A stretch of 34,255 nucleotides of DNA from Candidatus Nanopelagicales bacterium. GTDB taxonomy: Bacteria > Actinomycetota > Actinomycetes > S36-B12. Location: assembly GCA_032117435.1 (NCBI GenBank), contig JAULZJ010000048.1, positions 1-34,255 on the forward strand, given 5' to 3'. Below, piece after piece: positions 2,434 to 34,255 of the stretch (positions are counted from its first letter, which is position 1; each line of letters begins with the position of its first letter). The notes beneath the pieces are model-generated. The model was not told the DNA's origin. It saw nothing but the letters and a program-made list of their open reading frames with translations, and did not search any database. Position numbers and translations under genes: made by a program.

Positions 2434-3471
2434 ATGAGCGACCGAGCACGGGGCGGCAACGCCGCCTTCCGTTTCACCGACACCGCGGTCCTCTCCGTGA
2501 GTATCGCCGAGGCACCGGTCGTCGTGACCTCCGCCGAGATCGATGAGGCTCTGGCAGGTACCTACTCACGCCTGGACGTACGCCCCGGTCTGCTCGAGGG
2601 CCTGGCCGGGATCGTCGAGCGCCGCTGGTGGCCCGAGGACGTCTCCTTCGCCGACGCCGCCGCCATGGCGGGTGCCAAGGCCCTCGCGGACGCCGGCATC
2701 GAGCCCGAGCGCGTAGGGCTGCTCATCGACACATCCGTGTCCCGCGCGCACCTGGAGCCCTCGGCCGCGGTCGACGTACACCATCAGCTCAGCATGCCCC
2801 CGCACTGCCTCAACTTCGATCTATCCAACGCCTGCCTGGGCTTCGTCAATGGCATGCACCTCGCCGGGACCCTCATCGATGCCGGCCAGATCGACTATGC
2901 CGTCATCGTGGACGGGGAGGGCTCACGGGGGCTCCAGGAGCAGACCATCGCGCGCCTCCAGGGGCCCGGCACGACGGTTGCCGACGTGTTCGAGAACTTT
3001 GCCTCCCTGACGCTCGGCTCTGGTGGCGCCGCCATGGTGCTCGGGCGTGCCACGGAGCACCCGGAGGGGCATCGCTTCATCGGCGGCGTCTCCCGCGCGG
3101 CCACCCAGCACCACACCATCTGCGTCGGTGATATGACGCAGATGCGCACCGACTCCCGGGCCTTGCTCGAGGCGGGTCTGGAACTCTCCGTCGAGACCTG
3201 GCAGGAGGCGAGCGAGACCTTCGACTGGTCCGACCTCGACTGTTACGTCATACATCAGGTATCGAGTGTGCACACCCAGGCGATCACGGGGGCACTCGGC
3301 ATCGATCCGGCGCGCGTGCCGATGACCTTCCCGCTCTACGGCAATATCGGGCCGGCATCCATCCCCTTCACTCTCGCCAAGCAGGCGGACAATCTTCGCC
3401 AGGGCGACCGGGTCGGCTGCCTCGGCATCGGCTCGGGACTCAACGCCAGCGTCATCGAAATCGCCTGGTAG
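2434..3471 (+). CDS. oleA: OleA, a FabH-like thiolase for head-to-head (non-decarboxylative Claisen) condensation of two fatty acyl-CoAs
   Basis: KAS-III/thiolase fold with the active-site Cys context LSNACLGFVNG and a C-terminal GIGSGLN. The position directly upstream of a fused hydrolase/AMP-ligase gene and an SDR gene matches the Micrococcus-type ole cluster. Confidence 0.8.
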   Translation: MSDRARGGNAAFRFTDTAVLSVSIAEAPVVVTSAEIDEALAGTYSRLDVRPGLLEGLAGIVERRWWPEDVSFADAAAMAGAKALADAGIEPERVGLLIDTSVSRAHLEPSAAVDVHHQLSMPPHCLNFDLSNACLGFVNGMHLAGTLIDAGQIDYAVIVDGEGSRGLQEQTIARLQGPGTTVADVFENFASLTLGSGGAAMVLGRATEHPEGHRFIGGVSRAATQHHTICVGDMTQMRTDSRALLEAGLELSVETWQEASETFDWSDLDCYVIHQVSSVHTQAITGALGIDPARVPMTFPLYGNIGPASIPFTLAKQADNLRQGDRVGCLGIGSGLNASVIEIAW

Positions 3472-3484
3472 CCCGCGCCCCACG

Positions 3485-6019
3485 ATGAGCGCGCACCTGC
3501 CGGACCTGCCCGGTCTCGACCCCGCCTGGTCTCGCCGCGTGGACCTTGGCGAAATCGCGATGCACGTGCTCGAGCGCCCGGCCCTCGGCACTGCCGCCCT
3601 CACTGTGCTCGCGGTGCACGGCAATCCGACCTGGTCCTACCTCTGGCGGCGCCTGCTCGCGACTGCGCCGGCCGATTGGCGGGTCATCGCGGTCGACCAG
3701 ATCGGCATGGGCTTCTCCGATCGCCCCGATGGCATGCGCCGCCTCGCGGATCGGGTGACTGATCTCGGCAGGCTTACCGAGGCACTTGCCGTCACGGGTC
3801 CGGTCGTCACTGTCGCGCATGACTGGGGCGGTCCCGTCTCGCTCGGCTGGGACCTGGTGCATCGGGACCTGCTCGCGGGCGTCGTGCTCGCCAATACCGC
3901 GGTCCACCAGCCCGCCGGGTCACCCGCTCCGACGCTCATCCGGCTCGCCCGCTCGCGCCCTCTGCTGGAGGCCGTCACTCGGCGTAGCTCGACATTCCTG
4001 CGCGGCACCACGTGGATGTCACGACGCATGACCCCGGATGTGGCGCGCGCCTTCCGCGCGCCGTACCCAGACCGGGCGAGTAGGCGCGCCATCGGCGACT
4101 TCGTGGCGGACATACCCCTGTCCCCCGATCATCCGAGTGCGGCCACGCTCGACGGAATCGCAGAGGGCATCCGTTCGCTCGACGTGCCCGTGCTCCTCGC
4201 GTGGGGCGCCGACGACCCCGTCTTCTCCGATCGCTACCTGCGCGACCTGCGCTCGCGCATGCCACACGCCGACATCCACCGGTATGAGGGCGCCCGCCAC
4301 CTGGTCACCGAGGATGCCGAGAGCTGGGTCGAGGACGTCATCGCGTGGATCCAGGCGCGAGTGCTCCGCGAGGTGCCACCCCGTGATCCTGGCGACGATT
4401 CCGTGATCCCAATCGGCCAAGCCCTGGACGACAGGTCCCGCGACTCGGATGTGGCCCTCGCTGATCTGCGCTCGGATCGGCGCGTGAGCTGGGCGATGCT
4501 CGCTGCCCGCACCCGGGAGATCGCCGCGGGACTCATCGACATGGGCGTCCGCACCGGCGATCGTGTCGCGCTTCTCGTGCCCCCCGGCGCGGATCTCATT
4601 GCCTGCGTCTACGCCGCATGGCGCATCGGTGCCGTCGTGGTCGTCGCTGACTCGGGGTTGGGAGTGCGCGGCATGCGTCGCGCACTGCGCTCCGCGGAGG
4701 CCACGCACGTCGTGGGGATTCCCGCGGGGCTCGGCCTGGCGCGCACCCTGGAGCTGCCGGGAGTGCGCATCCTCGTGGGGCGCACCGGTCCCGCCACGCG
4801 CGTCCTCGGCGCGGATGCCTCGCTCGCCGAGGTCGCCCGGCGTGGGCGCGAGCATCTCGCAATCCGGGATCTGCCCCCGGCGCCGCCGGCGGAGGCGGAT
4901 GCGCTCGTCGCCTTCACTTCGGGGGCGACCGGCCCCGCCAAGGGCGTCGTCTACACGCACGCCCGCCTGGCGCACCTGCGCGATGCGCTGCGGGCGGCAT
5001 ATGGCATCGGCACGGATGACGCGCTCGTCGCTGCCTTCGCCCCCTGGTCGGTGCTCGGCCCCGCGCTCGGCATTCCCTCGGCGATCCCGGACATGGACCT
5101 CACCGATGCGAGCACGCTCACCGCCCGCGCCCTCGCTGACGCGGTGGGTGCCGTCGACGGCACCCTGGCATGGGCTTCGCCGACCGCGGTGCGCGCGGTG
5201 GTCGACTCCGGTGACCACCTCGACATGCATGAGCAGCGTGCGTTGGACAGCCTGCGCTTCCTGCTGGTCGCCGGTGCCCCGGTGCCGGTGGACCTGCTCG
5301 AGCGAGCTGCTGCGCTCCTTCCGAGTGCGACTCTCGCTACGCCGTACGGCATGACCGAAGCCCTGCCCCTGACCGAGGTGACGCTGCAGGAACTCCGCGA
5401 TGCCGTGGGCCTGGGTGTGCTCGTCGGGCGTCCACTCCCGGGCGTGGAGATCGACATCGCCGGCCTCGATGCCGCGGGCACCCCCGCGGAGCAGTTGGGG
5501 ACGGCACCGGGGGTGACAGGCGAGATCGTCGTGCGTTGCTCGTGGATGCGGGACAGGTACGACCGCCGCTGGGCAACTCAGCACCGGGCTGGCTCGCCCG
5601 AAGGCTGGCATCGCACCGGCGATGTCGGTCACCTCGACGACGAAGGGCGGCTCTGGGTCGAAGGACGCCTTGCTCACGTGCTGCTGTGCGCTGACGGACC
5701 CGTGACCCCGGTGGCAGCGGAACTCGTCGCGCAGCGCGCCGCCGGGGTGCCGCTCGCGGCACTCGTGGGAGTGGGCCCCCCGGGCGCCCAGGTGCCGGTG
5801 GTCGTCCTGCAGTCGCCGGGGCCCGCGCTGGGACTCGCTGAATCGGCCCTCACCCAGCGCGTGCGCGAGGACGTGCGGCGCGAGTCGGGCCTGGATCTCG
5901 CTGCTGTGCTCACGATGCGGTCCCTCCCGGTGGATGTGCGTCACCGGTCCAAAGTCGACCGCCTGCGGATCGCGCGCGAGACGAGCGACTTCCTCCAGGG
6001 AGCGCGCGGAGATGGCTGA
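3485..6019 (+). CDS. oleBC: Fused OleB (alpha/beta-hydrolase beta-lactone decarboxylase) and OleC (AMP-dependent beta-lactone synthetase)
   Basis: The N-terminal ~290 aa carry haloalkane-dehalogenase-like motifs (HGNPTWSYLWR, VAHDWGG). The C-terminal ~540 aa carry the adenylate-forming motif FTSGATGPAKGVVYTH. The start lies 13 nt after the oleA stop. Confidence 0.85.
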   Translation: MSAHLPDLPGLDPAWSRRVDLGEIAMHVLERPALGTAALTVLAVHGNPTWSYLWRRLLATAPADWRVIAVDQIGMGFSDRPDGMRRLADRVTDLGRLTEALAVTGPVVTVAHDWGGPVSLGWDLVHRDLLAGVVLANTAVHQPAGSPAPTLIRLARSRPLLEAVTRRSSTFLRGTTWMSRRMTPDVARAFRAPYPDRASRRAIGDFVADIPLSPDHPSAATLDGIAEGIRSLDVPVLLAWGADDPVFSDRYLRDLRSRMPHADIHRYEGARHLVTEDAESWVEDVIAWIQARVLREVPPRDPGDDSVIPIGQALDDRSRDSDVALADLRSDRRVSWAMLAARTREIAAGLIDMGVRTGDRVALLVPPGADLIACVYAAWRIGAVVVVADSGLGVRGMRRALRSAEATHVVGIPAGLGLARTLELPGVRILVGRTGPATRVLGADASLAEVARRGREHLAIRDLPPAPPAEADALVAFTSGATGPAKGVVYTHARLAHLRDALRAAYGIGTDDALVAAFAPWSVLGPALGIPSAIPDMDLTDASTLTARALADAVGAVDGTLAWASPTAVRAVVDSGDHLDMHEQRALDSLRFLLVAGAPVPVDLLERAAALLPSATLATPYGMTEALPLTEVTLQELRDAVGLGVLVGRPLPGVEIDIAGLDAAGTPAEQLGTAPGVTGEIVVRCSWMRDRYDRRWATQHRAGSPEGWHRTGDVGHLDDEGRLWVEGRLAHVLLCADGPVTPVAAELVAQRAAGVPLAALVGVGPPGAQVPVVVLQSPGPALGLAESALTQRVREDVRRESGLDLAAVLTMRSLPVDVRHRSKVDRLRIARETSDFLQGARGDG

Positions 6020-7022
6020 TCGCATCGCGGTCACCGGGGGATCCGGAGTGGTCGGCGGCGCCGTCGTCAGGGCATTGCTCGGACGAGGCGACGCGGTCGT
6101 CGCCGTCCAGCGCGGACCGCTGCCGGATGCACTGCGCTCAGCGGGGGCCGAAGACAGGCAGGCCGATGTCGCGGGCCCCGTGGCTGCCCTGGTCGGCGCC
6201 TTCATGGGCTCCTCAGCCGTCGTGCATGCGGCCGCGCGCGTCGACATCGTCGGACCCTGGAGCGATTACGAGCGGGCGAATGTCATCGGCACGCGCCAGG
6301 TGCTCGATGCTGCTCGCCGTGCGGGCGTGCGACGCTTCGTGCTTGTGTCTTCGCCATCGGTGGCACATGCCGGGTATGCCCTCGTCGGTGCCCGCGCTGA
6401 GAAGGCTGATCCGGACAATGCGCATGGCCACTACTCCCGCAGCAAGGCGATGGCGGAGGTGATTGCGCTTTCCGCGGACAGCGATGACATGGCCGTCACT
6501 GTCGTGCGGCCGCATCTGGTGTGGGGTCCCGGCGACACGCAGCTCACCGAGCGCATCATCGATCGGGCGCGCAGCGGTCGATTGGTGACGATCGGCGGCG
6601 GCTCGGCTCTCATCGACACGACGTACATCGACAACGCCGGTTCGGCCATTGCCGCCGCGGTCGACCGGGCGGCGCATGCGGATGTCCGCGGCCGTGCCTT
6701 CGTCGTATCCAATGGCGAGCCTCGCACGGTGAGCGAGATGCTCACTCGGATCGCCCAGGCTGCCGGCGCCCCGGGTCCCACGCGCAACGTGCCCTTTCCC
6801 ATGGCCCGGATGGGCGGGCTGGTGCTCGAGAGGCTGTGGGAGCGCACGGGGCGCGAGGGGGAGCCGCCGGTGACCGCCTTCCTCGCCGAGCAACTGGCCA
6901 CGGCGCACTGGTTCGACCAGCGCGAGACGCGCACCGCCTTGAATTGGGCCCCCGATGTCAGCCTCGACGAGGGCCTTCAGCGGCTGGCCGCGTGGCTGCG
7001 CGGCGTGGCTGCCTCATCCTGA
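6012..7022 (+). CDS. oleD: OleD, an NAD(P)H-dependent 2-alkyl-3-ketoalkanoate reductase of the 3-beta-HSD/extended SDR family
   Basis: ATG at 6012 overlaps the oleBC TGA (ATGGCTGA). Rossmann motif IAVTGGSGVVGG and catalytic YSRSK are present. The track start at 5934 would overlap oleBC by 86 nt and add a non-Rossmann extension. Confidence 0.8.
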   Translation: MADRIAVTGGSGVVGGAVVRALLGRGDAVVAVQRGPLPDALRSAGAEDRQADVAGPVAALVGAFMGSSAVVHAAARVDIVGPWSDYERANVIGTRQVLDAARRAGVRRFVLVSSPSVAHAGYALVGARAEKADPDNAHGHYSRSKAMAEVIALSADSDDMAVTVVRPHLVWGPGDTQLTERIIDRARSGRLVTIGGGSALIDTTYIDNAGSAIAAAVDRAAHADVRGRAFVVSNGEPRTVSEMLTRIAQAAGAPGPTRNVPFPMARMGGLVLERLWERTGREGEPPVTAFLAEQLATAHWFDQRETRTALNWAPDVSLDEGLQRLAAWLRGVAASS

Positions 7023-7035
7023 GCCCATCGGGGGC

Positions 7036-7293
7036 TATAAAGGACGAGACCCCTGGAAGTATGAGTTCCAGGGGTCTCGCCACGGATCGCACCTACCGGT
7101 CCCGCGAAGGGAAGTCGGGGGCGTCGCCCCTCCTCCGTCGCACCCGTTGCCGGGGCGCCTCCGGTGCGGCTTTCACCGCTTCAGTCGATCCCGAAGCTCC
7201 GGTCCCCCCCGCGACACCGGGGTGGGGAGTTGCCTCCGATCTCGTCTTGCGACGCGACCTCCGCTGCTCCGGCCGCTCAGTTTCCCTCGCGAC
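7036..7293 (-). ncRNA. Candidate structured stand-alone RNA, class not recognised
   Basis: On the minus strand there are four GNRA-capped hairpins: CGUC-GCAA-GACG (7254-7243), GGAG-GCAA-CUCC (7237-7226), GCGGU-GAAA-GCCGC (7179-7166) and CCCG-GCAA-CGGG (7154-7143). A possible closing helix pairs GCGAGGGAA (7290-7282) with UUCCCUUCGC (7113-7104). CGGAGG occurs four times. A terminator hairpin with a U-rich tail follows. No credible coding frame is present. The ends are approximate. Confidence 0.45.
7044..7080. terminator. Strong hairpin that could terminate oleD (+) and the candidate minus-strand RNA
   Basis: GAGACCCCTGGAA-7 nt-TTCCAGGGGTCTC is a perfect 13-bp stem, extendable to 15 bp. On the minus strand it is followed by CCUUUAU. 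The plus-strand side has no U-tract. It begins 22 nt after the oleD stop. Confidence 0.7.
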
Positions 7294-11372: not shown

Positions 11373-12338
11373 TCACGAGTGGAGGGCGCGGCGGAATGCT
11401 GCGATCCGTGCCTGCCAGATGCGCTGGCTCAGCTCTGCCTGAGGCGCGAATACCTCGGACGCGTGATAAGCCCCCGGATACACGTGGAACTCCGTGGGTA
11501 CGCCGGCTTGCAGCAGTCGCTGCACGAAGACGATGTCCTCATCTCGGAAGAGATCCAGCTCGCCCACGTCGATGAACATCGGCGGGAGGCCGGAGAGATC
11601 ACTCGCGCGCGCGGGGGCGGCGTAGCCATCCGCAGGCATGCCGCCCAGGAACCATGCCCACGCCTCGATGTTGCCCGCGCGATCCCAGATGCCCACGTCG
11701 GTGATCTCGTGCGTCGACGGAAGTTCGTTGCGATCATCCAGCATGGGGTAGGGGGCCATGACGAAGGAGATCGCCGGGCCGGACGCGTCGCGAGCCTTCA
11801 TGGCGGTGGCGATCGCCAGGTTGCCCCCGGCGCTGCCGCCGTAGACCCCGAGGCGCTGCGGGTCGACGTCGAGTTCGCCGGTGTGCGCAGCCATCCACGT
11901 GAGCGCGGCGTAGCAGTCGTTGACCTGAGCGGGATGCGGATCCTCCGGAGCCTTGCGATACCCGGTCGACACGATCACGGCATTGATCTGCTCGCACAGC
12001 ATCGCCGCGGTGAGCTCATTGGCCTCGATGTCGCCGAGGATCATGCCCCCGCCGTGGATGTAGAGGATGCCCGGCAGCAGGACGCCCGTGGCGTCGGCGG
12101 GAGTGTAGATCCGTACCGGGATCTCGGGTGCACCCTCGAGACCTGGGATCACGCGATCCTCCGTCACGACCCGGTCGTTGGGCGGGACGTCCGCCATCTG
12201 CGCGGCCAGCAGCCCAGCGACCACGGCCCGCCTCTCGACGATGTCGGGGATCGCGTTGAAGCCCCCCGGGATGGCCGCCAGGAGCATGTCCAGGGGCTCG
12301 CGGGATGCAGGGTCCAGTCGATCGCGCTGGACGGACAT
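11373..12338 (-). CDS. Alpha/beta-hydrolase fold-3 (hormone-sensitive-lipase family) carboxylesterase
   Basis: Oxyanion motif HGGGMILG and nucleophile elbow GGSAGGNLA. I prefer ATG at 12338, which is preceded by GAGAGGAG with a 5-nt spacer, over the track start at 12362. Confidence 0.8.
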   Translation of the reverse strand: MSVQRDRLDPASREPLDMLLAAIPGGFNAIPDIVERRAVVAGLLAAQMADVPPNDRVVTEDRVIPGLEGAPEIPVRIYTPADATGVLLPGILYIHGGGMILGDIEANELTAAMLCEQINAVIVSTGYRKAPEDPHPAQVNDCYAALTWMAAHTGELDVDPQRLGVYGGSAGGNLAIATAMKARDASGPAISFVMAPYPMLDDRNELPSTHEITDVGIWDRAGNIEAWAWFLGGMPADGYAAPARASDLSGLPPMFIDVGELDLFRDEDIVFVQRLLQAGVPTEFHVYPGAYHASEVFAPQAELSQRIWQARIAAFRRALHS

Positions 12339-12408
12339 GGCAGCTCCTCTCGCAGTGGTCACGGACCGACAGGCACGCTATTGGGTCACGAGCACCCGTG
12401 TCCGGACT

Positions 12409-13710
12409 TCAGGCAACTGGTGCCTGTCCGTCCTCCGCCTGCGCTCGGCGCACGTATCGCGGGAAGACGGCGATCACGGGAATGAGCAGCAGCGAGATGC
12501 CAATGACGACGAACGCCGGGATGAGGAGACTGCCGGTCGAGCCGAGAAGGGCCTCCTCCAGGGCGGGCGTGAAGCTGCCGATGATCATGCCGATGCTGTA
12601 GGTCAGAGCGAGGCCGGTGTAGCGGATCTTCGTGGGCACGAGCTGTGTCATCTCGGTCGTGGTGGTCGAGTCGACGAAGGTCTGCAGGGTGGCGAGAACG
12701 ACGATGGCGAGGAGTACCCCCGCGATGGCACCGCTGTTGAGGAGCATGACCGACGGGATGCCCAGGACGACGTAGCCGATGACGGCGCCGATCATGAGCG
12801 GCCGGCGTCCGCGGCGATCTCCGAGCACTGCCACGGGCACGATCAGCGCGATGTAGATGACGGAGATAAGCGCCGACACGAGGTCTGCTCGGGCGTCGGA
12901 GATGCCGATGGCCGTCTCGAGATACGACGGCATCCACGAGATGAGCGTGTACACCGTGACACCGCTCCACGTGGCGAGCGCCAGCATGAGGAAGGTGGCC
13001 CCGGGATAGGCCCGGAGGAGGTAGCGGATGGGGGCACCGGTGTCGCCGGCCTGGGCGGCCTGCTCGAAGGACTCCGTCTCGCGCATCTTGCGCAGCATGA
13101 GCACCGCGACGACGGCGAGGACGAAGCCGACGGCGTAGGGGATGCGCCAGGTGCCCTCGGCGAGGGCGTCCTGTCCCCAGATGACGGTCGTGAAGAACAC
13201 GACGAGCGAAGCGAGCAGGTTGCCCCCCATGGCGGTCGCCAGGCCGAGGGAGACGCTGCGCCCGCGCCCGGACTGACCAGCGGACTCGCTGAGGGCGGTC
13301 AACGCGCCGGAGTACTCCCCGCCGACGGAGAAGCCCTGCATGAGGCGCATGAGGGTGAGCAGGATGGGGGCGAGGATCCCTATCTGGTCGTACGTCGGCA
13401 GGATCGTGGTGATGGCGAGCGGGATGAGCATGAGGGTCGTCGACAGCACGAGGGCGTACTTGCGCCCCTTGGTGTCCCCGAGGCGGCCGATGACGAGTCC
13501 GCCGATCGGGCGGGCGATGTAGCCGACGGCGAAGGTCGCGAAGGTGAGGATGAGCCCCACCGTGGCACTGTCAGTGGGGTAGAAGACCTGTTGGAGGGTC
13601 GTCGCCAGCAGGCCGTAGACCATGAAGTCGTACCACTCGATGACGACGCCGCTGGTGGTGAAGAGGCGGTTACGTCGACGCTCGCGCTCGGTGAGTCGCG
13701 TAGGGGCCAC
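12409..13710 (-). CDS. MFS transporter of the metabolite:H+ symporter (MHS, ProP/KgtP-like) family
   Basis: The N-terminal signature GVVIEWYDFMVYG precedes about 12 hydrophobic segments. I place the start at in-frame GTG 13710, because the longer track ORF (to 14049) would read through the tRNA gene. Confidence 0.8.
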   Translation of the reverse strand: MAPTRLTERERRRNRLFTTSGVVIEWYDFMVYGLLATTLQQVFYPTDSATVGLILTFATFAVGYIARPIGGLVIGRLGDTKGRKYALVLSTTLMLIPLAITTILPTYDQIGILAPILLTLMRLMQGFSVGGEYSGALTALSESAGQSGRGRSVSLGLATAMGGNLLASLVVFFTTVIWGQDALAEGTWRIPYAVGFVLAVVAVLMLRKMRETESFEQAAQAGDTGAPIRYLLRAYPGATFLMLALATWSGVTVYTLISWMPSYLETAIGISDARADLVSALISVIYIALIVPVAVLGDRRGRRPLMIGAVIGYVVLGIPSVMLLNSGAIAGVLLAIVVLATLQTFVDSTTTTEMTQLVPTKIRYTGLALTYSIGMIIGSFTPALEEALLGSTGSLLIPAFVVIGISLLLIPVIAVFPRYVRRAQAEDGQAPVA

Positions 13711-13744
13711 GTCGGGAGCATAGGCGCGACGATCTCGGGAAGGG

Positions 13745-13817
13745 CGCCCCCGGCAGGATTCGAACCTGCGACCTTCGGTACCGGAAACCGGCGCTCTATC
13801 CCCTGAGCTACGGGGGC
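13745..13817 (-). tRNA. tRNA-Arg (anticodon CCG)
   Basis: The minus strand reads GCCCCCG-TA-GCTC-AGGGGATA-GAGC-G-CCGGT-TTCCGGT-ACCGA-AGGTC-GCAGG-TTCGAAT-CCTGC-CGGGGGC-G. It has a perfect 7-bp acceptor stem and 5-bp T arm, a TTCGAAT loop, U33 and G37. One C.A mismatch sits at the top of the anticodon stem. CCA is not encoded. Confidence 0.9.
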
Positions 13818-13846
13818 TGGGGAGGGATCGAGGGTAACAGCCGGGC

Positions 13847-14149
13847 TTACGACGAGAACCAGCGCGGCGGCCCGGCGAGGAGAGCCGTCGCGAAGGAACC
13901 GAGCGCAGCACCGACGCCCATGGACGTGCCCGTGAGTACGAAGGGTGTGAAGAGCCACCCGACCACGAATGCGATGCTGCCGAAGACGAGTGCGGAGATG
14001 ACGGCGAAGGCGAATCGGCCGCCGGGCTTGCCGGATCCCGGCTGGGCAACCTCGGCGTTGGCCTTCTTGTCCGGCGTGGCTTTCTTGTCCGATGCGGCTG
14101 TCGAGGACTGGGAGACCTCGGCTAGCAGTTTCTCGATGTCGTCGCTCAT
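13847..14149 (-). CDS. Small membrane protein (two predicted TM helices), unknown function
   Basis: ATG is preceded by AGGA at a 7-nt spacing. A charged N-terminus (MSDDIEKLLAEV...KKATPDKKA) is followed by FAFAVISALVFGSIAFVVGWLF and SMGVGAALGSFATALLAG. Third codon positions are GC-rich. Confidence 0.6.
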   Translation of the reverse strand: MSDDIEKLLAEVSQSSTAASDKKATPDKKANAEVAQPGSGKPGGRFAFAVISALVFGSIAFVVGWLFTPFVLTGTSMGVGAALGSFATALLAGPPRWFSS

Positions 14150-24000: not shown

Positions 24001-24174
24001 GGCATCGACCCGGGGGTGGGTGCTAACCTCGTGGGAGTCCGCGTTGGACCCCTCCAAGATCCCCGTTCCTCTCGGGAATGCCGACATAGGCACAGCGGAC
24101 ATTGCGCGGTGTGGACTTCACCTCCGTGCACCCACCCGATCCCACCGTGGTGTCGGGCTGACAAAGGAAACTAC
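24001..24174 (+). promoter_or_regulatory. rho 5' leader with a C-rich, G-poor (rut-like) patch; possible autoregulatory attenuator
   Basis: This is a 174-nt non-coding gap before rho. It contains GACCCCTCCAAGATCCCCGTTCCTCTC at about 24049-24075. Any function is inferred from Rho autoregulation in other bacteria. Confidence 0.3.
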
Positions 24175-25857
24175 GTGAGCGATACCGCTACCGCCCCTGC
24201 CAGCAAGTCAGCGTCCGGGCTCTCCGGAATGCTCCTGCCCGAGCTCAAGCAGCTCGCCCAGTCGCTGGGCATCACCGGGGCCAGCACGATGCGCAAGGGC
24301 GCTCTCATCGAGGCCATCAGCGCCAAGCAGTCCGCAGGGCGATCCTCCGGCGCGACGCGCGCCGAGGGCAATGGGGCCGCGCGATCCAAGGAGCGCACTG
24401 GCAACGGTGGTTCCGAGGGCGATGGCAGCACCGAGACGGCGCCTACGAGCGATGCCGGGGCCGCCCCGCGCAGGGACAACCGTGGCGACCAGCGCCCGGA
24501 CAATCGACAGGACAGCCGCGGCGATCAGCGGCCGGACAACCGTCAGGACAGCCGTCAGGACAGTCGACAGGATGCCTACGACGACGACGGTGACGGTGGC
24601 TCGCGACGTCGACGCCGTCGCGGCCGTGATCGCTTCCGCGACCGCCGTGATCGTCGCCCGGGCACAACCTTCAACGAGCAGGACATCGAGGTGTCCGAGG
24701 ACGATGTGCTCGTCCCCGTCGCGGGCATCCTGGACATCATGGACAACTACGCATTCGTGCGCACCGCCGGCTACCTCCCGAGCCCCAACGACGTCTACGT
24801 CTCCCTCTCCATGGTCAAGAAGCACGGGCTGCGCAAGGGCGATGCCATCACGGGTGCCGTGCGCCAGCCGCGCGATGGGGAGCGGCGGGAGAAGTTCAAT
24901 CCGCTCGTGAGGATCGAGACCGTCAACGGCAGCGAGCCGGACCAGGGCCGTCAGCGTCCGGAGTTCTCCAAGCTCACCCCTCTCTACCCCCAGGAGCGGC
25001 TGCGCCTGGAGACCGAGCCGGGCAACCTCACCACGCGCGTGATCGACCTGGTTGCGCCGATCGGCAAGGGCCAGCGCGGTCTCATCGTCTCCCCGCCCAA
25101 GGCGGGCAAGACCATGGTGCTCCAGTCCATTGCCAACGCCATCGTCACCAACAACCCCGAGTGCCATCTCATGGTCGTCCTCGTGGACGAGCGACCCGAG
25201 GAAGTCACCGACATGCAGCGCTCGGTGAAGGGCGAGGTCATCGCCTCCACCTTCGATCGTCCCGCCGAGGACCACACGATCGTCGCGGAGCTTGCGATCG
25301 AGCGCGCCAAGCGCCTTGTGGAGTTGGGCCACGACGTCGTCGTCCTGCTCGACTCGATGACTCGTCTCGGGCGGGCCTACAACCTCGCCGCCCCCGCGTC
25401 GGGACGAATCCTGTCCGGTGGTGTCGACTCCACGGCGCTCTATCCGCCCAAGCGCTTCTTCGGCGCCGCACGCAATATCGAGAACGGCGGGTCGCTCACC
25501 ATCCTGGCGACGGCCCTCGTCGAGACCGGCTCTCGCATGGACGAGGTGATCTTCGAGGAGTTCAAGGGCACCGGCAACATGGAGCTCAAGCTCGACCGCA
25601 AGCTGGCCGACAAGCGCATCTTCCCCAGTGTCGACGTGGATGCCTCCGGCACCCGCAAGGAGGAGCTCCTCATGGCTCCGGACGAGCTCAAGATCGTCTG
25701 GAAGCTGCGGCGCGTGCTCCACGCACTCGATCAGCAGCAGGCCATCGAGCTGCTGCTCACCAAGCTGCGCGACACCAAGAGCAACCTCGAATTCCTCCTG
25801 CAGGTCCAGAAGACGACCCCGGCCGTCACCGGCTCCACGGAGTCCGACGACGCCTAG
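24175..25857 (+). CDS. rho: Transcription termination factor Rho with an actinobacterial Arg/Asp/Asn/Gln-rich N-terminal insertion
   Basis: GTG 24175 is preceded by AAAGGAAA. The N-terminal domain begins [14 protein letters not shown], the Walker A motif is PPKAGKT, and the RecA-type core is present. The track start at 24016 adds a Cys/His/Pro-rich extension that looks non-coding. Confidence 0.95.
24475..24573 (+). repeat. In-frame degenerate tandem repeats inside rho, encoding DNRGDQRP / [12 protein letters not shown] / [13 protein letters not shown]
   Basis: Three GACAAYCG-initiated units span 24475-24498, 24499-24534 and 24535-24573. They are coding, not a CRISPR or an intergenic repeat. 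Confidence 0.8.
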
Positions 25858-28250: not shown

Positions 28251-28897
28251 GCCTGGTCATCGATGTCGGCGACCGCCCGGGACCCGGGCGGGAGCGCGGC
28301 ATCTCCGCAGCGGCTGCTGCCATCAAGCGCGGTGACCTCGTCGTGCTGCCGACCGAGTCCGTCTATGGCCTGGCGGCCGATCCCTTTTCACCCAGGGCGA
28401 TGCGCGCACTGCGCGAGGCCAAGGGTCGCGGCGACGACCTGCCGGTCGGCGTCCTGGTCGGAGCGGTGCGCACCGTAGATGGCCTGGCCAGCGGCATCAC
28501 CGCTGATGGCCGCGCGCTCATCGAAGCATTCTGGCCCGGCCCACTCACTCTCGTCGTGCGAGAGCAGCCGACCCTGGCGTGGGACAACCCGGACGGTCAT
28601 GTGTCGCTGCGCATGCCCCTGCATCCGGTGACGCTCTCAGTGCTCGCTGCCACGGGTCCGCTCGCGGTGACATCGGCCCAGCGTGCCGGGAGCGTTCCGC
28701 CGCGCACCTGCGCCGATGCCGAGGCGCAGCTCGGGGATGGGATCGCGCTGTATCTCGATGCGGGACCCACGACCGACGACGTGCCCAGCAGCATCGTCGA
28801 CCTCACCGTGGAGCCGCCGCTGCTGCTGCGGGAGGGTGCCTACTCCCTCGACGCGCTGGTGGGGATCTGCCCCGACCTGGTGCTGCCCGAGGCGTAG
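28247..28897 (+). CDS. tsaC: L-threonylcarbamoyladenylate synthase (YrdC/Sua5/TsaC family, single domain)
   Basis: 4-nt overlap with prmC. YrdC-like motif VVLPTESVYGLAADPF and a size of ~216 aa. The position after prfA-prmC is conserved in actinobacteria. Confidence 0.85.
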   Translation: MSLVIDVGDRPGPGRERGISAAAAAIKRGDLVVLPTESVYGLAADPFSPRAMRALREAKGRGDDLPVGVLVGAVRTVDGLASGITADGRALIEAFWPGPLTLVVREQPTLAWDNPDGHVSLRMPLHPVTLSVLAATGPLAVTSAQRAGSVPPRTCADAEAQLGDGIALYLDAGPTTDDVPSSIVDLTVEPPLLLREGAYSLDALVGICPDLVLPEA

Positions 28898-28981
28898 ACC
28901 TGCGGAATCCCGCAGATCCGGTCGAGACGAGGGGCCGGCGTGGAGGAAGGTAGGCCCGCTCACCCACTCGAGGAGGCCGAT

Positions 28982-31900
28982 GTGGCGACCCGCCGCCGTA
29001 CCACCGTCCCTGTGCTCAGTGCCGTCGCACTGGTTGCCCTATCGATGGTGCCGGTGTCCGCGCAGGCTGTGGCCAAGCCTGCGGAGGTGTACGCGCCGAC
29101 CGTGGCCTCGCGGACTGTTCTCGAGCCGAGTGCGGTCGCTGCACCGGCGCCAAGGGCGAAGCCCGTGAACTTCGTCGCGCGTGCACCCAAGAAGGTGAAG
29201 TCATCTGAGGTCTTCGCTGTCAAGGCTACGTTGCCCCGCACGTACGCGAATCTGTCCGCGGTCGGTGAAGTGCTCGTGGGCAGGAAGTGGATTCCCCAGC
29301 GCACGGCGCGAGTCGCTGGTTCGGGTCGGGTATCGGTGACCATGCAGCTGAGCGAGCCGGGGTCGCACAAGATTCGCTTGAGGATTCCCGGCAAGAAGGC
29401 GGCTCAGTCTCAGGTTCTCGCCATTCGCTCCACGGGGAAGAAGCCCGCGGATGCCTCGCCGCTCCGCATGCTCTCCCACTGGATGGCGGGTGGGAGCGCC
29501 CCCCGGTCGGCTCGCTCGGATGGCGCTGAGCCTTCTGCTGCTAGCGAGGTCGCGGCTGCGACTACCGAGCAGGCCCTGTCCTTCGGCACGATCTTCGAGA
29601 AGACCGCGGAGGTCGCCGGCGAAGAGGTCATCGGCTTCGGCGTCGAGCAGCTCCTGGAACTCATCTTCCCTGGCACGGCTCGAGCGACGGAACAGCAGAT
29701 CGAGGCGCTGCAGGAAGAGGTCCAGCAGGGCTTCGAAAACGTCTACAACGACCTCAATGAGATCCAGTCGACGCTCACCACGGTGCAGCAGCAGAATTCG
29801 CAGGTCTTCAGCGAGGCATCACTCGCAGCCTGCAAGTCGTCGCTGGACAGCGCCCAAGAAGACGTCAAGGCTATCCAGACCGCCTACGCCAACTACCAGA
29901 ATGCGCTGACACCGACCTGGGGCCAGGCGAACCTGAACTACGCTGCCGGGACGGCCAATGCGAGGGTCATCGGCAACTATGTCTTCGGGACAGGAAGCGG
30001 CACACCGTCCTTCGCGCCGGGAGTGAATGCCCTCCAGGTGCAGGTCGCCAACCTAGCTGGCGCCTTCAACGTCAATAACGCGGGAAATGCGCTCAGCACC
30101 TGCGCCGACGCCGTCGCCGCCTACGTCATCCAGAGCCAGGCCCCGGCGAGCAGCAACACCGCACCACCCCAGGTCGCGGTGGGCTCACTGGACACGGCAT
30201 ACGCGGAGCAGATGCAGAGCATCGTGGCCTACTACACGTCGTATATCAGCGTGGGTGCTGGACTTGTCGGCATCGGCGACGTGCTGGCTGCTGCCACATT
30301 GGTCAGCCCGAACCTGCAGTCGCAGGCGCAGTTCCTGCAGGCGTGCAACACCCTGTCGGTGTTCTCGTGCCAGCAGACCCAGCAGTCACTCAACTCTGCG
30401 AACGCCGCCGTGGCGGCTACCTGGCAGGCCACGGGTGCGTCGTGGACCCAGGTGACCAATGGCACCCTGGCCGCGGATGTGTACGCCACCAATGCCGACA
30501 CGGTCTTCTCGAAGGCGAATGGCCAGAACGCCTGGGTGGTGGACCTCGCGAGCTACCGGGACGGCTACTTCGGCCAGGGTTCGGTCGGCTCACCGCTCAG
30601 CTCCACGAATGTCGATACCAACAGCCCCGTGTCCGGGGTGTCGGGCTTCGCGCCCGGCAACAGCACATGGGCTCCGCTCACCTTCGAGCCGGCCTCGAGC
30701 GAGGACTGGAACAATCTCCTCGCCATCTCCGGCGCGTTCAATGCCTACCCCGGAGCACAGGGGACGATCCCGGTGCAGTGCGCGGTCGGCTCAAGCAACT
30801 CCCTGACCAGCTGCCAGAGCCCGACGCAGACCGGCACCCTCATGGGCAACGCCGGCCTCGGCAACGGCGGGCAGCCGGTGAGCGCACAGGACGATCTCAT
30901 CGTCTATACGGGCGAGAACTACGAGTGGAGCCCGCAGTCTTCTGGCATGACGTCGGGCCTGTCGTTCTCCGTCCCCTGGCCCAGCTTCTTGCAGACCCCC
31001 AATCTCACCGTGGCGTCCTTCCTCGACACCGGGCTCTGGCCCAACATCGGCGCGTCGGTCGTCGTCAACGATCCCGACTCCGTGGGTCCGGCCAACCCCT
31101 CCGGCGCGGTGCAGAACCTCACCGTGAGCAGCGTCTATCCGTTCGCCACGGAGGTGACGTCTGTCGATGGCGACTCGAAGGCCGAGGCCGCGTGGTTCAC
31201 GACCCTGCAGAACTGGAGCGGTGGCTACAACTACGTGATGGTGCCCTGCTCGACGTGGTCGCAGTCGGACTACGCGCTCAACGGCGGTTCGTGGACCCTC
31301 ATGAACTGGATCGCCGGTCAGGGATCCAACGGCGCCGCGACGACGTACGGCAGCGGCTGCGGAGCCACGTCCTACTACCCCAAGGGAGGCGCCAGCAATA
31401 CGTCGCAGCAGTACAACCTGACCTCGACGCAATTGCCCGCCTTCTACGAGGAACCGACGTTCTACGCGGCTTACATGGCCAACGGACTGGCTGGACCGTG
31501 CACGGCGAGCATTCAGAACTGCCCCACCGGCCCCTACGGGCCTCAATACGGCAGCGTCCCGGGCTTCACCCTGCAAGTGGGGAGTACGAACGTCTCGCCG
31601 CCGGCCCAGGAGCAGTATTTGTGGCCTCTCCTGCCGCTGGACACCCCCGAGTCCTGCGCCAGCGCCGGAGGACCGACTGACTTCACGCAGGGCACCACGA
31701 ATATCTACTTTCCCCAGGTGTGCCAGCAGCTCTTCAACGAGTGGCTCAGCGTGGACGTCGGCCAGACAGTGGGCAGCGTGAGTGCTTTCGCCCAGCCCAA
31801 TACCGGCATGGCCGCGGGCAATGCCGCGCAGATCCAATTCCTCAATTCTGGGAGCACCGCTGCCTCCATGACGGCGGTCTTCGCGGTCGACGGCGGTGCC

Positions 31901-33319
31901 ACACCGAGCGCAGCGCCCACGAGCGTCACGCCCGGTGCCGTCTCGTCCTGCACGAGTGGGTCGGTCGACGGCCAGACGACGTACCTGTGCACCCTCACGC
32001 TGCCTGCTGGCCTCACGACGGTGAGCCTTCCCGTCACCTTCTCCAGTGCGTCGTCAACGGGCACGCTCTTCGTCGGTGCGGAGAACGCCCTCGCCGGCAA
32101 TTACACCGGCCTCACCACTCCCATCGATCAGAGCCCCATCTCCGGCCTCGTGCCGGCCGGGGTGACCGACCTCGCTGCGACGTTCAACACCTCCGGAGCG
32201 GGCGGCTCGGGCACGGGTGGCCCGGTGACTCTCTCCTGGACGGTGCCGTCCTCGCCGACACCCATCACCGGCTACCAGGTCACGGCGATTGGACCGGGGG
32301 GCACGACGACGACGACAGCGCCCGCCGGGAGCGTCGCCGCGGGAGGCACGACCTCCTACCAGTTCACCCTGCCCCAGGCCGGCTACTGGACGTTCACCGT
32401 GGCCGCGAGCAACTCCGTCGGCACGGGCCCAGCGGACACCATCAGCATCACGATCGGCAATGTCCCACCACCCCCGCCCCGCAACCTCCGCGGCACCGAA
32501 CTCCTCGGTGGCGAGGTGGCGCTGCGGTGGCAGCCCATCGTGGTCGCACCGCCCGTGAACTACTACACCGTGGCCTGGTGGTACGGCGATGACACTGCGC
32601 CGCCCACAGGGCTTCCGGTGATCGCGGGCGGTCAGGGTCTGGCCACCGTCGGTTCCGGCACGTCATTGGTCGGGATCGCCACTACTCAGGAGCCTGCCTT
32701 CATCGTGCCCGGTCTGGACGCGACCGGCGTGTGGACCTTCCAGGTCACTGCCACGAACGCTGTCGGCACGTCGATGCCACCGACGCTGACGACCGTGAAT
32801 ATGCAGGGCTTCCGGCCGTCGCAGGTACTGGCCCTGACACCCGACATCGGGGCGACCGGCCGCGTGGGTGCGTCGTGGATCCCGGGCGTCGTGGGTGTGC
32901 CTTCACCGACGTCCTACACGGTGGGCCTCTACGCGCCCGCCACGTGTACGACGGACGACTCGTGCACGGCTCCCGCACTGACGAGCCTGACGCTGCCTGC
33001 TCCATCGGCCCGCGGGCCGATTCGTGTGGCGGACTTCTTCCAGCTCGGCAGGAACTCCGCGGCGGGCGCTTACACGATCACCGTGACGGCAGCCAATGTC
33101 TACGGCAATAGCGCCACAGCGCGGGGAACCGTCTACCTCACCAGGGACTTCATCTCGACCCTGACGGGATCTGAGCAGACTACGAAGGACGCCCAGGATG
33201 TTCCCCCGACCCTGGCGAAGCTGGATGCCCAGGAATGCGCCGAGGGCAACATCTCAGGGTCGACACCCTGGGGAACGTGCACCAACCAGGTCTGGACACC
33301 GAAGAAGGGCACGGGCTAG
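28982..33319 (+). CDS. Orphan 1445-aa secreted multidomain protein: signal peptide, Ig-like module, helical Q/A/N-rich region, Cys-paired beta-rich region, three FN3 modules and a short Cys-containing tail
   Basis: GTG 28982 lies 5 nt after AGGAGG (28971-28976). The signal peptide is (M)ATRRRTTVPVLSAVALVALSMVPVSAQA/VAKP. There are 18 Cys, all in the mature part. No LPXTG motif and no C-terminal TM segment are present. I recognise no catalytic motif. Confidence 0.8.
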   Translation: MATRRRTTVPVLSAVALVALSMVPVSAQAVAKPAEVYAPTVASRTVLEPSAVAAPAPRAKPVNFVARAPKKVKSSEVFAVKATLPRTYANLSAVGEVLVGRKWIPQRTARVAGSGRVSVTMQLSEPGSHKIRLRIPGKKAAQSQVLAIRSTGKKPADASPLRMLSHWMAGGSAPRSARSDGAEPSAASEVAAATTEQALSFGTIFEKTAEVAGEEVIGFGVEQLLELIFPGTARATEQQIEALQEEVQQGFENVYNDLNEIQSTLTTVQQQNSQVFSEASLAACKSSLDSAQEDVKAIQTAYANYQNALTPTWGQANLNYAAGTANARVIGNYVFGTGSGTPSFAPGVNALQVQVANLAGAFNVNNAGNALSTCADAVAAYVIQSQAPASSNTAPPQVAVGSLDTAYAEQMQSIVAYYTSYISVGAGLVGIGDVLAAATLVSPNLQSQAQFLQACNTLSVFSCQQTQQSLNSANAAVAATWQATGASWTQVTNGTLAADVYATNADTVFSKANGQNAWVVDLASYRDGYFGQGSVGSPLSSTNVDTNSPVSGVSGFAPGNSTWAPLTFEPASSEDWNNLLAISGAFNAYPGAQGTIPVQCAVGSSNSLTSCQSPTQTGTLMGNAGLGNGGQPVSAQDDLIVYTGENYEWSPQSSGMTSGLSFSVPWPSFLQTPNLTVASFLDTGLWPNIGASVVVNDPDSVGPANPSGAVQNLTVSSVYPFATEVTSVDGDSKAEAAWFTTLQNWSGGYNYVMVPCSTWSQSDYALNGGSWTLMNWIAGQGSNGAATTYGSGCGATSYYPKGGASNTSQQYNLTSTQLPAFYEEPTFYAAYMANGLAGPCTASIQNCPTGPYGPQYGSVPGFTLQVGSTNVSPPAQEQYLWPLLPLDTPESCASAGGPTDFTQGTTNIYFPQVCQQLFNEWLSVDVGQTVGSVSAFAQPNTGMAAGNAAQIQFLNSGSTAASMTAVFAVDGGATPSAAPTSVTPGAVSSCTSGSVDGQTTYLCTLTLPAGLTTVSLPVTFSSASSTGTLFVGAENALAGNYTGLTTPIDQSPISGLVPAGVTDLAATFNTSGAGGSGTGGPVTLSWTVPSSPTPITGYQVTAIGPGGTTTTTAPAGSVAAGGTTSYQFTLPQAGYWTFTVAASNSVGTGPADTISITIGNVPPPPPRNLRGTELLGGEVALRWQPIVVAPPVNYYTVAWWYGDDTAPPTGLPVIAGGQGLATVGSGTSLVGIATTQEPAFIVPGLDATGVWTFQVTATNAVGTSMPPTLTTVNMQGFRPSQVLALTPDIGATGRVGASWIPGVVGVPSPTSYTVGLYAPATCTTDDSCTAPALTSLTLPAPSARGPIRVADFFQLGRNSAAGAYTITVTAANVYGNSATARGTVYLTRDFISTLTGSEQTTKDAQDVPPTLAKLDAQECAEGNISGSTPWGTCTNQVWTPKKGTG
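32141..33145 (+). other. Three tandem fibronectin type III-like modules within the large secreted protein
   Basis: Module 1 (32141-32458) reads PVTLSWTVP..ITGYQVTA...YWTFTVAASNSVGTG. Module 2 (32465-32803) reads PRNLRG..VALRWQP..YYTVAWW...VWTFQVTATNAVGTS. Module 3 (32810-33145) reads VGASWIPG..SYTVGLY...AYTITVTAANVYGNS. Boundaries are approximate. Confidence 0.65.
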
Positions 33320-33409
33320 CCGCGTTCCGACACGTCGGCGGGCGCTCGGCGCCATGCCACGTACACTCGCCCCGACGGTGGGAATCCGCCGTAGTGAGGG
33401 GAGTGCGCC

Positions 33410-34255
33410 GTGAGCGAGACATTCTGGGGCCCGGACTTCGGGCAGCTGCAGTCTGAGGATCCTGAGATCGCGGGCATCCTCCTGTCGGAGCTCGATCGCG
33501 CCCGCGGCGGTCTCCAGCTCATCGCGAGCGAGAACTTCACCTCGCCCGCCGTGCTCGCCGCTCTCGGCTCGACGCTGAGCAACAAGTACGCCGAGGGCTA
33601 CCCAGGCAAGCGCTACTACGGCGGCTGCTCGGAGGTCGACAAGGCGGAGATCATCGGCATCGAGCGAGCCAAGGAGCTCTTCGGTGCCGAGCACGCCAAC
33701 CTCCAGCCGCACAGTGGCGCGAGTGCCAACATCGCGGCGTACGGCGCCTTCGTCAAGCCCGGCGAGACCGTCCTCGCCATGAGCCTGCCTCACGGCGGTC
33801 ACCTCACCCACGGCTCCAAGGTCAACTTCTCCGGCAAGTGGTTCGAGGTCGTCTCCTACGGCGTGCGCGAGGACACCGAGACCATCGACTACGACGAGGT
33901 CCGCTCCATCGCCTTGGAGCACAAGCCGCGGATGATCATCGCCGGCGCCACGGCGTACCCGCGCCTCATCGACTTCGCCGCCTTCCGCGCGATCGCCGAC
34001 GAGGTGGGCGCCATCCTCATGGTCGACGCCGCGCACTTCATCGGCCTCGTGGCCGGCAAGGCGATCCCCAGCCCTGTGCCCTATGCCGACGTGGTCACCT
34101 TCACGACGCACAAGGTGCTGCGCGGCCCGCGCGGCGGCATGATCCTGTGCAAGGCCGAGCACGCGGCGGCAATCGACAAGGGCGTCTTCCCGATGATGCA
34201 GGGCGGCCCGCTCATGCACGCGGTCGCGGCCAAGGCCGTGGCGCTCAAGGAGGCG
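33410..34255 (+). CDS. glyA: Serine hydroxymethyltransferase (3' end beyond the window)
   Basis: GTG 33410 is preceded by GAGGGGAG. The sequence includes [36 protein letters not shown] and the PLP-Lys motif [13 protein letters not shown]. The frame stays open to the window end. It is absent from the ORF track because there is no stop codon. Confidence 0.93.

Follow-up and report, generated by a model that had tools for sequence, protein, structure and literature searches.

Gene X, the subject of this analysis, is a true accessory single-gene insert in the prfA-prmC-tsaC/glyA block of an uncultured actinobacterium (Candidatus Nanopelagicales bacterium, assembly GCA_032117435.1, contig JAULZJ010000048.1, of which all 34,255 nucleotides (nt) were analysed and are referred to here as the window). 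It is a real, coding gene under purifying selection, and it belongs to a small, rare and uncharacterised family whose function is most likely surface binding. A preliminary description, made from the letters of the window alone, had presented gene X as an orphan encoding a secreted, cysteine-paired, multidomain protein. The evidence on its locus, its relatives, the predicted fold of the protein and the functions that may be considered for it is set out below.

The locus, its empty counterparts and the gene family

Gene X is a single uninterrupted open reading frame (ORF) on the forward strand (28940/28982..33319, +) with 1445 residues counted from GTG 28982 and a stop at 33317-33319; the protein has a size of ~145 kDa. 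The window has a high guanine-plus-cytosine (GC) content (0.65-0.73), and the gene order in this part of it is hom-thrC-thrB-rho-rpmE-prfA-prmC-tsaC, gene X, glyA. The earliest in-frame start upstream is GTG 28940; the likely start is nevertheless GTG 28982, since the Shine-Dalgarno sequence GAGGAGG (28970-28976) precedes this codon (28982-28984; the whole signal spans 28970..28984, +) and the N-termini of homologues align from this region and not from the upstream GTG. A spacer of 84 nt separates gene X from the tsaC stop at 28897, and one of 90 nt from the glyA GTG at 33410. Directly 3' of the tsaC stop lies a 6-bp hairpin without a T-run (CTGCGG-AATC-CCGCAG; 28900..28915, +), which a terminator scan did not score as a terminator, and the spacer that holds it shows little conservation among relatives. 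The spacings, the hairpin, the ribosome-binding site and the single ORF could all be re-read from the sequence as previously described. Consensus scans, which are uninformative here, found neither a terminator nor a sigma-70 promoter beside gene X, in agreement with the earlier remark that no terminator is obvious.

The accessory nature of the gene emerges from related loci, which were recovered by means of the tsaC protein and compared for synteny. In three of them (L018, L019 and L021) tsaC is directly followed by glyA, with spacers of 97-217 nt, and one of these empty sites, L018, belongs to the closest relative found (prmC 96%, tsaC 92% and glyA 96% identical). Gene X is present in L020, L003, L006, L008 and L011, at a housekeeping distance similar to that of the empty-site loci. 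More distant Actinobacteria (tsaC ~50%) mostly show the order tsaC-glyA-GT4, and the empty arrangement is therefore regarded as ancestral. The proposed insertion into a conserved block is thus borne out both by the empty sites of the nearest relatives and by the adjacency of tsaC and glyA in distant ones. Gene X remnants and target-site or flanking repeats were sought at the empty sites and only chance-level short matches appeared; insertion and deletion are indistinguishable for L018, L019 and L021. The 750-residue head of the protein (described in the next section) gave no tblastn match in phage and plasmid collections, and an origin from either is consequently not supported.

An octamer of the form CGTA[C/G]ACT, which resembles a -10 element (TAnnnT), occurs in the window at 33360..33367 (+) as CGTACACT, ~45 nt upstream of the glyA GTG. 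It is found ~45-55 nt upstream of the glyA start in the window, in L018, L019 and L021, and in L001 and L003-L005. Its retention in loci with gene X and in empty sites alike suggests that glyA is served by a promoter of its own and needs no read-through; gene X is placed between the tsaC stop and this putative promoter. Examined as a riboswitch or leader, the spacer between gene X and glyA showed no Rfam match and a folding z-score of -0.9. Beside the insertion site, the last 5-15 residues of TsaC (28860-28897 in the window) vary by locus: the protein ends with CPDLVLPEA in the window, CPDLVNSGVS in L003 and CPDLVDSG(T/N)P in L008/L011, and carries a longer tail in L018.

No conserved partner recurs in nine gene contexts, which also lack a toxin partner or immunity gene, and between tsaC and glyA gene X stands alone, without the companions of a tripartite or binary toxin operon. 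In the clades at ~45% and ~30% identity the gene is sited elsewhere, often near toxin-antitoxin genes; in L016 and L012, for instance, the homologues (P0051 and P0017, respectively) lie among PIN, HigB, RHH and HTH toxin-antitoxin genes in flexible regions. Two genes that overlap distant homologues, and are seen nowhere else, are possible lineage-specific operon partners: in L013 a same-strand gene (5070-7163) follows P0023, overlaps its end and encodes a 697-residue protein with a faint Glug match, and in L014 a same-strand gene (366-668) for a 100-residue protein precedes and overlaps P0030.

A word-indexed search of 5.8 billion proteins identified 14 full-length homologues (45-89% identity), to which a profile search added 7, and an exhaustive HMMER run with a profile of residues 185-1050 retrieved just 32 of 1.84 billion representative proteins (24 at E <= 1e-30), nearly all of them 1100-1800 residues long. 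With 21 close-to-moderate full-length homologues and 32 representative clusters, gene X is not unique to the genome of the window and the term orphan has to be abandoned. Altogether ~50 full-length relatives share the architecture, all in uncultured Actinomycetota; the genome matches are all metagenome-assembled and are labelled by their depositors as Actinomycetales, Ca. Nanopelagicales, "uncultured Actinomyces sp." or Actinomycetota. Distant members (~30% identity) keep the same order of parts, from the signal peptide to a tail with the motif ECAxG...GTCxN, usually with the N-terminal module, and in those tested fn3 is the sole Pfam family detected. Full-text literature searches found no publication on this family.

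Selection is evident from the comparison with the L003 orthologue (dN/dS = 0.16); the most constrained parts have values of 0.075 (helical domain) and 0.08 (third FN3 module). Gene X had also been judged, by eye, less GC-rich than its neighbours. This is correct for overall GC (0.665 vs. 0.69-0.71 in prfA/prmC/tsaC) and does not extend to a codon deviation: GC at third codon positions (GC3) is 0.841, equal to that of the same neighbours (0.81-0.86), and the first position holds the deficit (GC1 0.587). The lower GC is thus an amino-acid effect and not a foreign codon signature, the protein containing 11.1% T, 9.8% S, 5.9% Q, 5.0% N and 9.3% charged residues, and a recent foreign origin on grounds of composition was rejected for the same reason. 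At four-fold sites the choice of codons (C/(C+G) 0.53-0.57) is like that of tsaC and thrB and unlike that of rho, prfA, glyA and atpE; a high-expression codon signature is absent.

Architecture of the encoded protein and two types of head

The protein begins with a predicted signal peptide (residues 1-28; 28982..29065, +), judged by rule-based inspection of the n-region, h-region and AxA cleavage motif. It comprises an RRR n-region, a hydrophobic core of 17 residues (Kyte-Doolittle hydropathy (KD) 2.11 at residues 9-27) and the cleavage site AQA/V, as had been proposed before. A hydrophobic N-terminal segment occurs in almost all family members and the Sec-type features are conserved across the family. 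A twin-arginine RR is found in only about one quarter of the members; gene X has T-R-R-R-T-T-V, and good motifs of the S/T-R-R-x-F-L-K type occur in some relatives (SRRPFLV in P0011, RRRGFLP in P0023).

The mature protein opens with a basic module (residues 29-185; 29066..29536, +) consisting of a presumed beta module (~60-150) and a linker with the invariant motif P160-x-R162-M163-x-x-H166. The module has no Pfam or PDB sequence match, and the label Ig-like formerly given to it is without any profile behind it. Its isoelectric point (pI) is 11.5 and 22.9% of its residues are charged; the other segments of the protein have pI values of 4.05-4.66, and from the helical domain through the FN3 modules charged residues make up only 3.5-9.4%. 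This polarity is a family trait, as 35 of 44 members, distant ones included, carry an N-terminal module of pI 9.6-12 and net charge +7 to +20 on a remainder of pI ~4.1. Among Gram-positive surface proteins, the combination of a basic module with an acidic body usually signals non-covalent binding to anionic wall polymers. No LPXTG motif exists in the last 80 residues of any of the 44 members scanned and none has a C-terminal hydrophobic anchor (C-terminal hydropathy maximum <= 1.2), exactly as noted earlier for gene X. The conclusion once drawn from this, that the protein is probably released, is weakened by the family-wide basic module on an acidic body, which may indicate attachment, and is not secure.

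The next ~750 residues, referred to as the head, were modelled with AlphaFold2. A run with 8 sequences reached a predicted local distance difference test (pLDDT) score of only 36.5, and an alignment of 45 sequences was needed: for residues 155-950 it gave a mean pLDDT of 79.7 and a predicted template modelling score (pTM) of 0.82, with low pLDDT in the first ~130 residues of the model. In the predicted structure a bundle of ~12 helices is packed against a ~450-residue domain that is rich in loops, poor in helices and has short strands. The helical domain (residues 186-484; 29537..30433, +) has long helices at ~237-273, 278-308, 402-440 and 463-484. Its pLDDT is 50-70 up to about residue 285 and 85-94 thereafter, and none of the 45 sequences departs from the pairs Cys284-Cys374 and Cys455-Cys463. 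Helix 422-440 (ISVGAGLVGIGDVLAAATL) is hydrophobic in the window and its close clade (KD 1.77); the family-mean hydropathy is 1.2, with polar Q/S/R replacements in distant members. The W/Y/N/G-rich, loop-rich alpha/beta domain that follows (residues 485-935; 30434..31786, +; pLDDT mostly 85-95) contains the conserved motifs GASWxQVTNG, AWVxD, YTGE, SFLDT, VNDP, QxQYLWP and TSFTQG. A probably helical region followed by a W/Y/N-rich one had already been proposed in the preliminary description, and the model agrees with it.

Foldseek searches with this model retrieved nothing at E <= 0.001 in either PDB or BFVD (best E 0.13 and 0.049), the top PDB matches being de novo helical bundles. Among natural proteins the best matches were all non-significant (E 0.5-2.8, template modelling (TM) score <= 0.25): SmhA, SmhB, ClyA and MakA at E 0.5-2.5 with probability <= 0.08, which is no structural evidence of a toxin, and Vip3B at E 0.58, probability 0.30 and TM 0.16-0.17, without a Pfam Vip3 match; the S-layer protein SbsC lies in the noise (E 1.1, TM 0.05). 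The 750-residue head, as modelled, thus appears to have no relative of known fold among the solved structures of PDB and the viral predictions of BFVD. No toxin, adhesin or enzyme was listed when PDB sequences were searched with a profile at E <= 10, and Pfam, NCBIfam, PADLOC and PHROGs yielded only fn3 plus coiled-coil-type noise, with no catalytic or toxin family. For glycoside hydrolases and polysaccharide lyases in particular there is no catalytic-domain match in Pfam or NCBIfam and no Foldseek match in PDB. Hence the statement that no catalytic or toxin motif is recognisable is upheld. Sub-threshold matches to SesA, Bacillus_HBL, JukB, syntaxin and cavin were rejected as coiled-coil noise; all of them fall on residues ~222-310, a Q/E/L-rich helical hairpin.

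Beyond the head lies a chain of beta modules. A beta-sandwich (Ig-like) module (residues 936-1050; 31787..32131, +) with the pair Cys990-Cys1003 is predicted to be all-beta (pLDDT 60-79) and has no Pfam match; it was modelled in the shallow 8-sequence run, of which it is the only moderate-confidence part (~945-1050). Three FN3-type modules follow (residues 1051-1160, 1161-1275 and 1276-1385; 32132..33136, +), with an invariant PPxPPRN linker at residues 1162-1168. The whole protein scores 34.1 bits with Pfam fn3 (PF00041), above the gathering cut-off of 25 bits, and FN3con and titin are the top PDB sequence matches of this region, with chitinase A1 FN3 also among the matches. Scanned singly, module 2 (25.6 bits) passes the cut-off, module 1 (22.4 bits) falls just short of it and module 3 shows weak Ig-like matches only, so that the earlier count of three FN3 modules is verified in part. 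The protein ends in a 60-residue tail (residues 1386-1445; 33137..33319, + strand, with the stop) formed by a helix and the Cys1419-Cys1433 loop, whose motif ECAxG...GTCxN is kept even in relatives ~30% identical overall. As two of these relatives (P0019 and P0030) carry extra domains beyond it, the tail does not represent a sorting signal at the terminus but a small domain.

All 18 cysteines of the protein lie after residue 283 (284, 374, 455, 463, 600, 611, 756, 793, 840, 847, 892, 914, 990, 1003, 1322, 1328, 1419 and 1433), and 9 disulfides are predicted; the pair positions given previously correspond to the present numbers + 14. The pairs 284/374, 455/463 and 892/914 persist in all 45 relatives, 600/611 and 756/793 each lose both partners at once, and the number of cysteines is even in most members. 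This joint conservation and loss supports the pairing and, with it, the former suggestion of disulfide-stabilised folding.

The head exists in two types whose distribution differs from the grouping of the surrounding genes. By their prfA/prmC/tsaC sequences the loci form group A (window, L006, L003, L011 and L008; 84-95% internal identity), group B (L004 and L010) and group C (L001), with prmC and tsaC 65-72% identical between groups. In residues 62-534 of gene X the grouping is different: type 1 comprises the window, L006 and L003 (82-89% identical) and type 2 comprises L011, L008, L004, L010 and L001 (82-95% identical), the two types sharing 55-60% identity, so that both occur inside housekeeping group A. 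Along the full length, the type-1 protein P0004 (L003) and P0007, a full-length type-2 protein of group A whose contig (L098) carries a group-A tsaC end, are 40-70% identical in sliding windows up to about residue 1140 and 83-92% identical from there to the end. The non-synonymous difference drops from ~0.3 to ~0.05 between residues 1000 and 1200, around the PPxPPRN linker, which places the switch from the type-specific part to the shared C-terminal ~300 residues at about residues 1140-1200. Type-2 proteins from different groups diverge as slowly as prfA (dN 0.08-0.10; 0.24-0.27 in prmC/tsaC). Synonymous sites are saturated everywhere (proportion of synonymous differences, pS, ~0.5), and for this reason an exchange of cassettes looks the same as an accelerated divergence of the type-1 head.

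Readings of function

We tentatively favour the reading of gene X as an accessory, exported and non-covalently wall-associated binding protein of the adhesin or surface-coat type, neither enzyme nor toxin, wall attachment, binding activity and ecological role being what we infer from the features above. The protein would be exported via its cleavable signal peptide and fold oxidatively outside the cell, where its 9 predicted disulfides would form; the strongly basic N-terminal module would then hold it non-covalently on anionic wall polymers and display an acidic, almost uncharged body made up of the new-fold head, one Ig-like module, three FN3-type modules and the disulfide-loop tail. The head, in which the helical bundle is packed on a disulfide-stapled W/Y/N-rich loop domain, may be the specificity determinant, in two deeply diverged types. 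Presence or absence of the whole gene among close relatives, together with diverged heads, is the pattern expected of an exposed structure engaged in biotic interactions. Several observations pull the other way. Nine family members lack the basic N-terminal module, and Pfam and NCBIfam contain no SLH, LysM, GW or CWB match to the protein, nor is there a sortase signal, so that it is charge that speaks for wall attachment. In the close clade helix 422-440 reaches a membrane-grade hydrophobicity (KD 1.77), and in the loop-rich domain the acidic residues D521, D682 and E645 are conserved (one invariant, two near-invariant), which leaves room for catalysis.

These residues, located in the motifs AWVxD (D521), YTGE (E645) and SFLDT (D682), would be accounted for by a secreted enzyme acting on an extracellular polymer, i.e., a new type of glycoside hydrolase or lyase with a catalytic head and Ig/FN3 spacers. 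Such spacers are found in many actinobacterial chitinases and cellulases, and in bacteria FN3 modules typically accompany secreted enzymes that degrade polysaccharides; the chitinase A1 FN3 match and the strong purifying selection on the head within each type fit this idea as well. We nevertheless consider it unlikely, because no CAZy-type or other catalytic family matches in Pfam or NCBIfam, no solved enzyme is a structural neighbour, the loop-rich domain is poor in regular secondary structure, no transporter, regulator or utilisation genes are linked in any context, and a head divergence of 40-45% between close genomes is unusual for a conserved enzyme. An S-layer or other self-assembling surface lattice, in which the basic module binds the wall and the acidic body forms the lattice as a variable cassette, is distinctly unlikely. 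The charge dipole is there (a split into basic and acidic parts that is not specific to S-layers), as are a charged-residue content of only 7-11%, a composition rich in S/T/A/G/N and a chain of beta-sandwich modules; the insert is monocistronic, and at its one locus it is either absent or present in divergent allelic types, and SbsC appears among the noise-level Foldseek matches. Against it stand the lack of any SLH or other S-layer domain in Pfam/NCBIfam, the 18 cysteines, most S-layer proteins having few or none, and a four-fold codon choice like that of weakly expressed neighbours, which does not point to expression at the very high level that an S-layer protein would be expected to have; a strong promoter is not recognisable either.

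The hydrophobic helix and the order of domains, helical and then beta, recall secreted membrane-active toxins, in which a soluble helical bundle hides a hydrophobic helix and rearranges into the target membrane, following a logic like that of ClyA, Smh or Vip3. Receptor binding would fall to the beta/Ig/FN3 modules, and the basic N-terminal module would direct the protein to anionic membranes; as there is no immunity gene, it would be aimed at a grazer or another eukaryote. In addition to the hydrophobicity of the helix (KD 1.77 in the close clade, window included), this reading can draw on SmhA/SmhB, Vip3B, ClyA and MakA as the best natural, though non-significant, structural matches, on a weak Bacillus_HBL match, on the low pLDDT at the start of the model, which could reflect mobility, and on a presence/absence pattern common among toxins. 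It is very unlikely all the same. The structural matches are at noise (E >= 0.5), with no toxin in the PDB profile search; the Bacillus_HBL profile (PF05791) reaches 12.9-13.9 bits (E 0.05-0.1), far below its cut-off of 29.1, in 1 of 8 members; the hydrophobicity of the helix is not kept family-wide, partner components and immunity gene are missing, and the type-2 sequence is as constrained as prfA. The analogy with pore-forming or binding toxins drawn in the preliminary description is therefore not supported, the Bacillus_HBL and SesA matches being sub-threshold. Bolder still, and most improbable, is the view that the head represents an undescribed fold class, a membrane-active or target-cell-binding effector secreted by uncultured aquatic Actinomycetota, with the diverged types as target specificities swapped at a fixed chromosomal slot; such an effector could act, e.g., against protist grazers or competitors.

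The results are not evidence that a new toxin or biological mechanism has been found, and gene X continues to be a "hypothetical protein", now a well-characterised one. If the model holds, the rare family contains a confidently predicted unit of 750 residues without a relative in Pfam, PDB or BFVD, and this head is a defined target for structure determination. The filled and empty sites and the two head types at a fixed locus constitute a natural experiment on the diversification of a surface or secreted protein in environmental actinobacteria.

Other features of the window and comparison with known systems

Three further features lie upstream in the window. Genes on the forward strand at 2434-7022 encode a KAS-III-like thiolase (2434-3471), a fusion of alpha/beta-hydrolase and AMP-dependent ligase (3485-6019) and a 3-beta-HSD/epimerase-type reductase (5934-7022); this trio probably represents the oleA / oleBC-fusion / oleD layout of the long-chain olefin pathway of Micrococcus luteus. 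In rho (24016-25857), tandem repeats of 36 nt and 12 nt (24474-24572, +) encode an R/D/Q-rich N-terminal insertion, and such insertions are typical of actinobacterial Rho. The sole RNA family match of the window is a tRNA-Arg (anticodon CCG; 13743-13817, -), which overlaps two long mechanical ORFs (12178-13806, + and 12409-14049, -) that cannot both be genes as listed.

Among known systems, the ClyA family (ClyA, Hbl/Nhe, SmhABC and MakA) and Vip3 share with the gene X protein a predicted elongated helical bundle, in which the close clade has a hydrophobic helix, and Vip3 also has a helical N-terminal part followed by beta and carbohydrate-binding-like domains, as in the layout of gene X. Unlike the members of the ClyA family, the gene X protein is 4-5 times larger, carries a classical signal peptide and comes without partner genes; family-wide, the hydrophobic helix is not retained, and all matches are non-significant. 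S-layer proteins such as Geobacillus SbsC and Lactobacillus SlpA resemble it in the combination of a basic part of wall-binding type with an acidic, low-charge body, in the chain of domains, in the divergence of alleles and in presence/absence at one locus. The gene X protein differs from them in being rich in cysteine, in lacking an SLH or S-layer Pfam domain and in showing no codon sign of high expression.

With streptococcal antigen I/II and adhesins of the MSCRAMM type, gene X has in common a signal peptide, its size, a non-repetitive head followed by beta-sandwich modules, a variable head on a conserved stalk and a stand-alone gene. In contrast to these adhesins, the gene X family has no LPXTG motif, its head has no detectable relation in sequence or structure to adhesin domains, the basic module is N-terminal and the FN3 modules C-terminal, and many disulfides are predicted. 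Overall, the product of gene X is of a familiar kind, a secreted or surface protein of modular build that contains Ig/FN3 modules. What is new lies in the details: a head of 750 residues that comes in two types, a family that is rare, and a single-gene insert for which empty sites exist.

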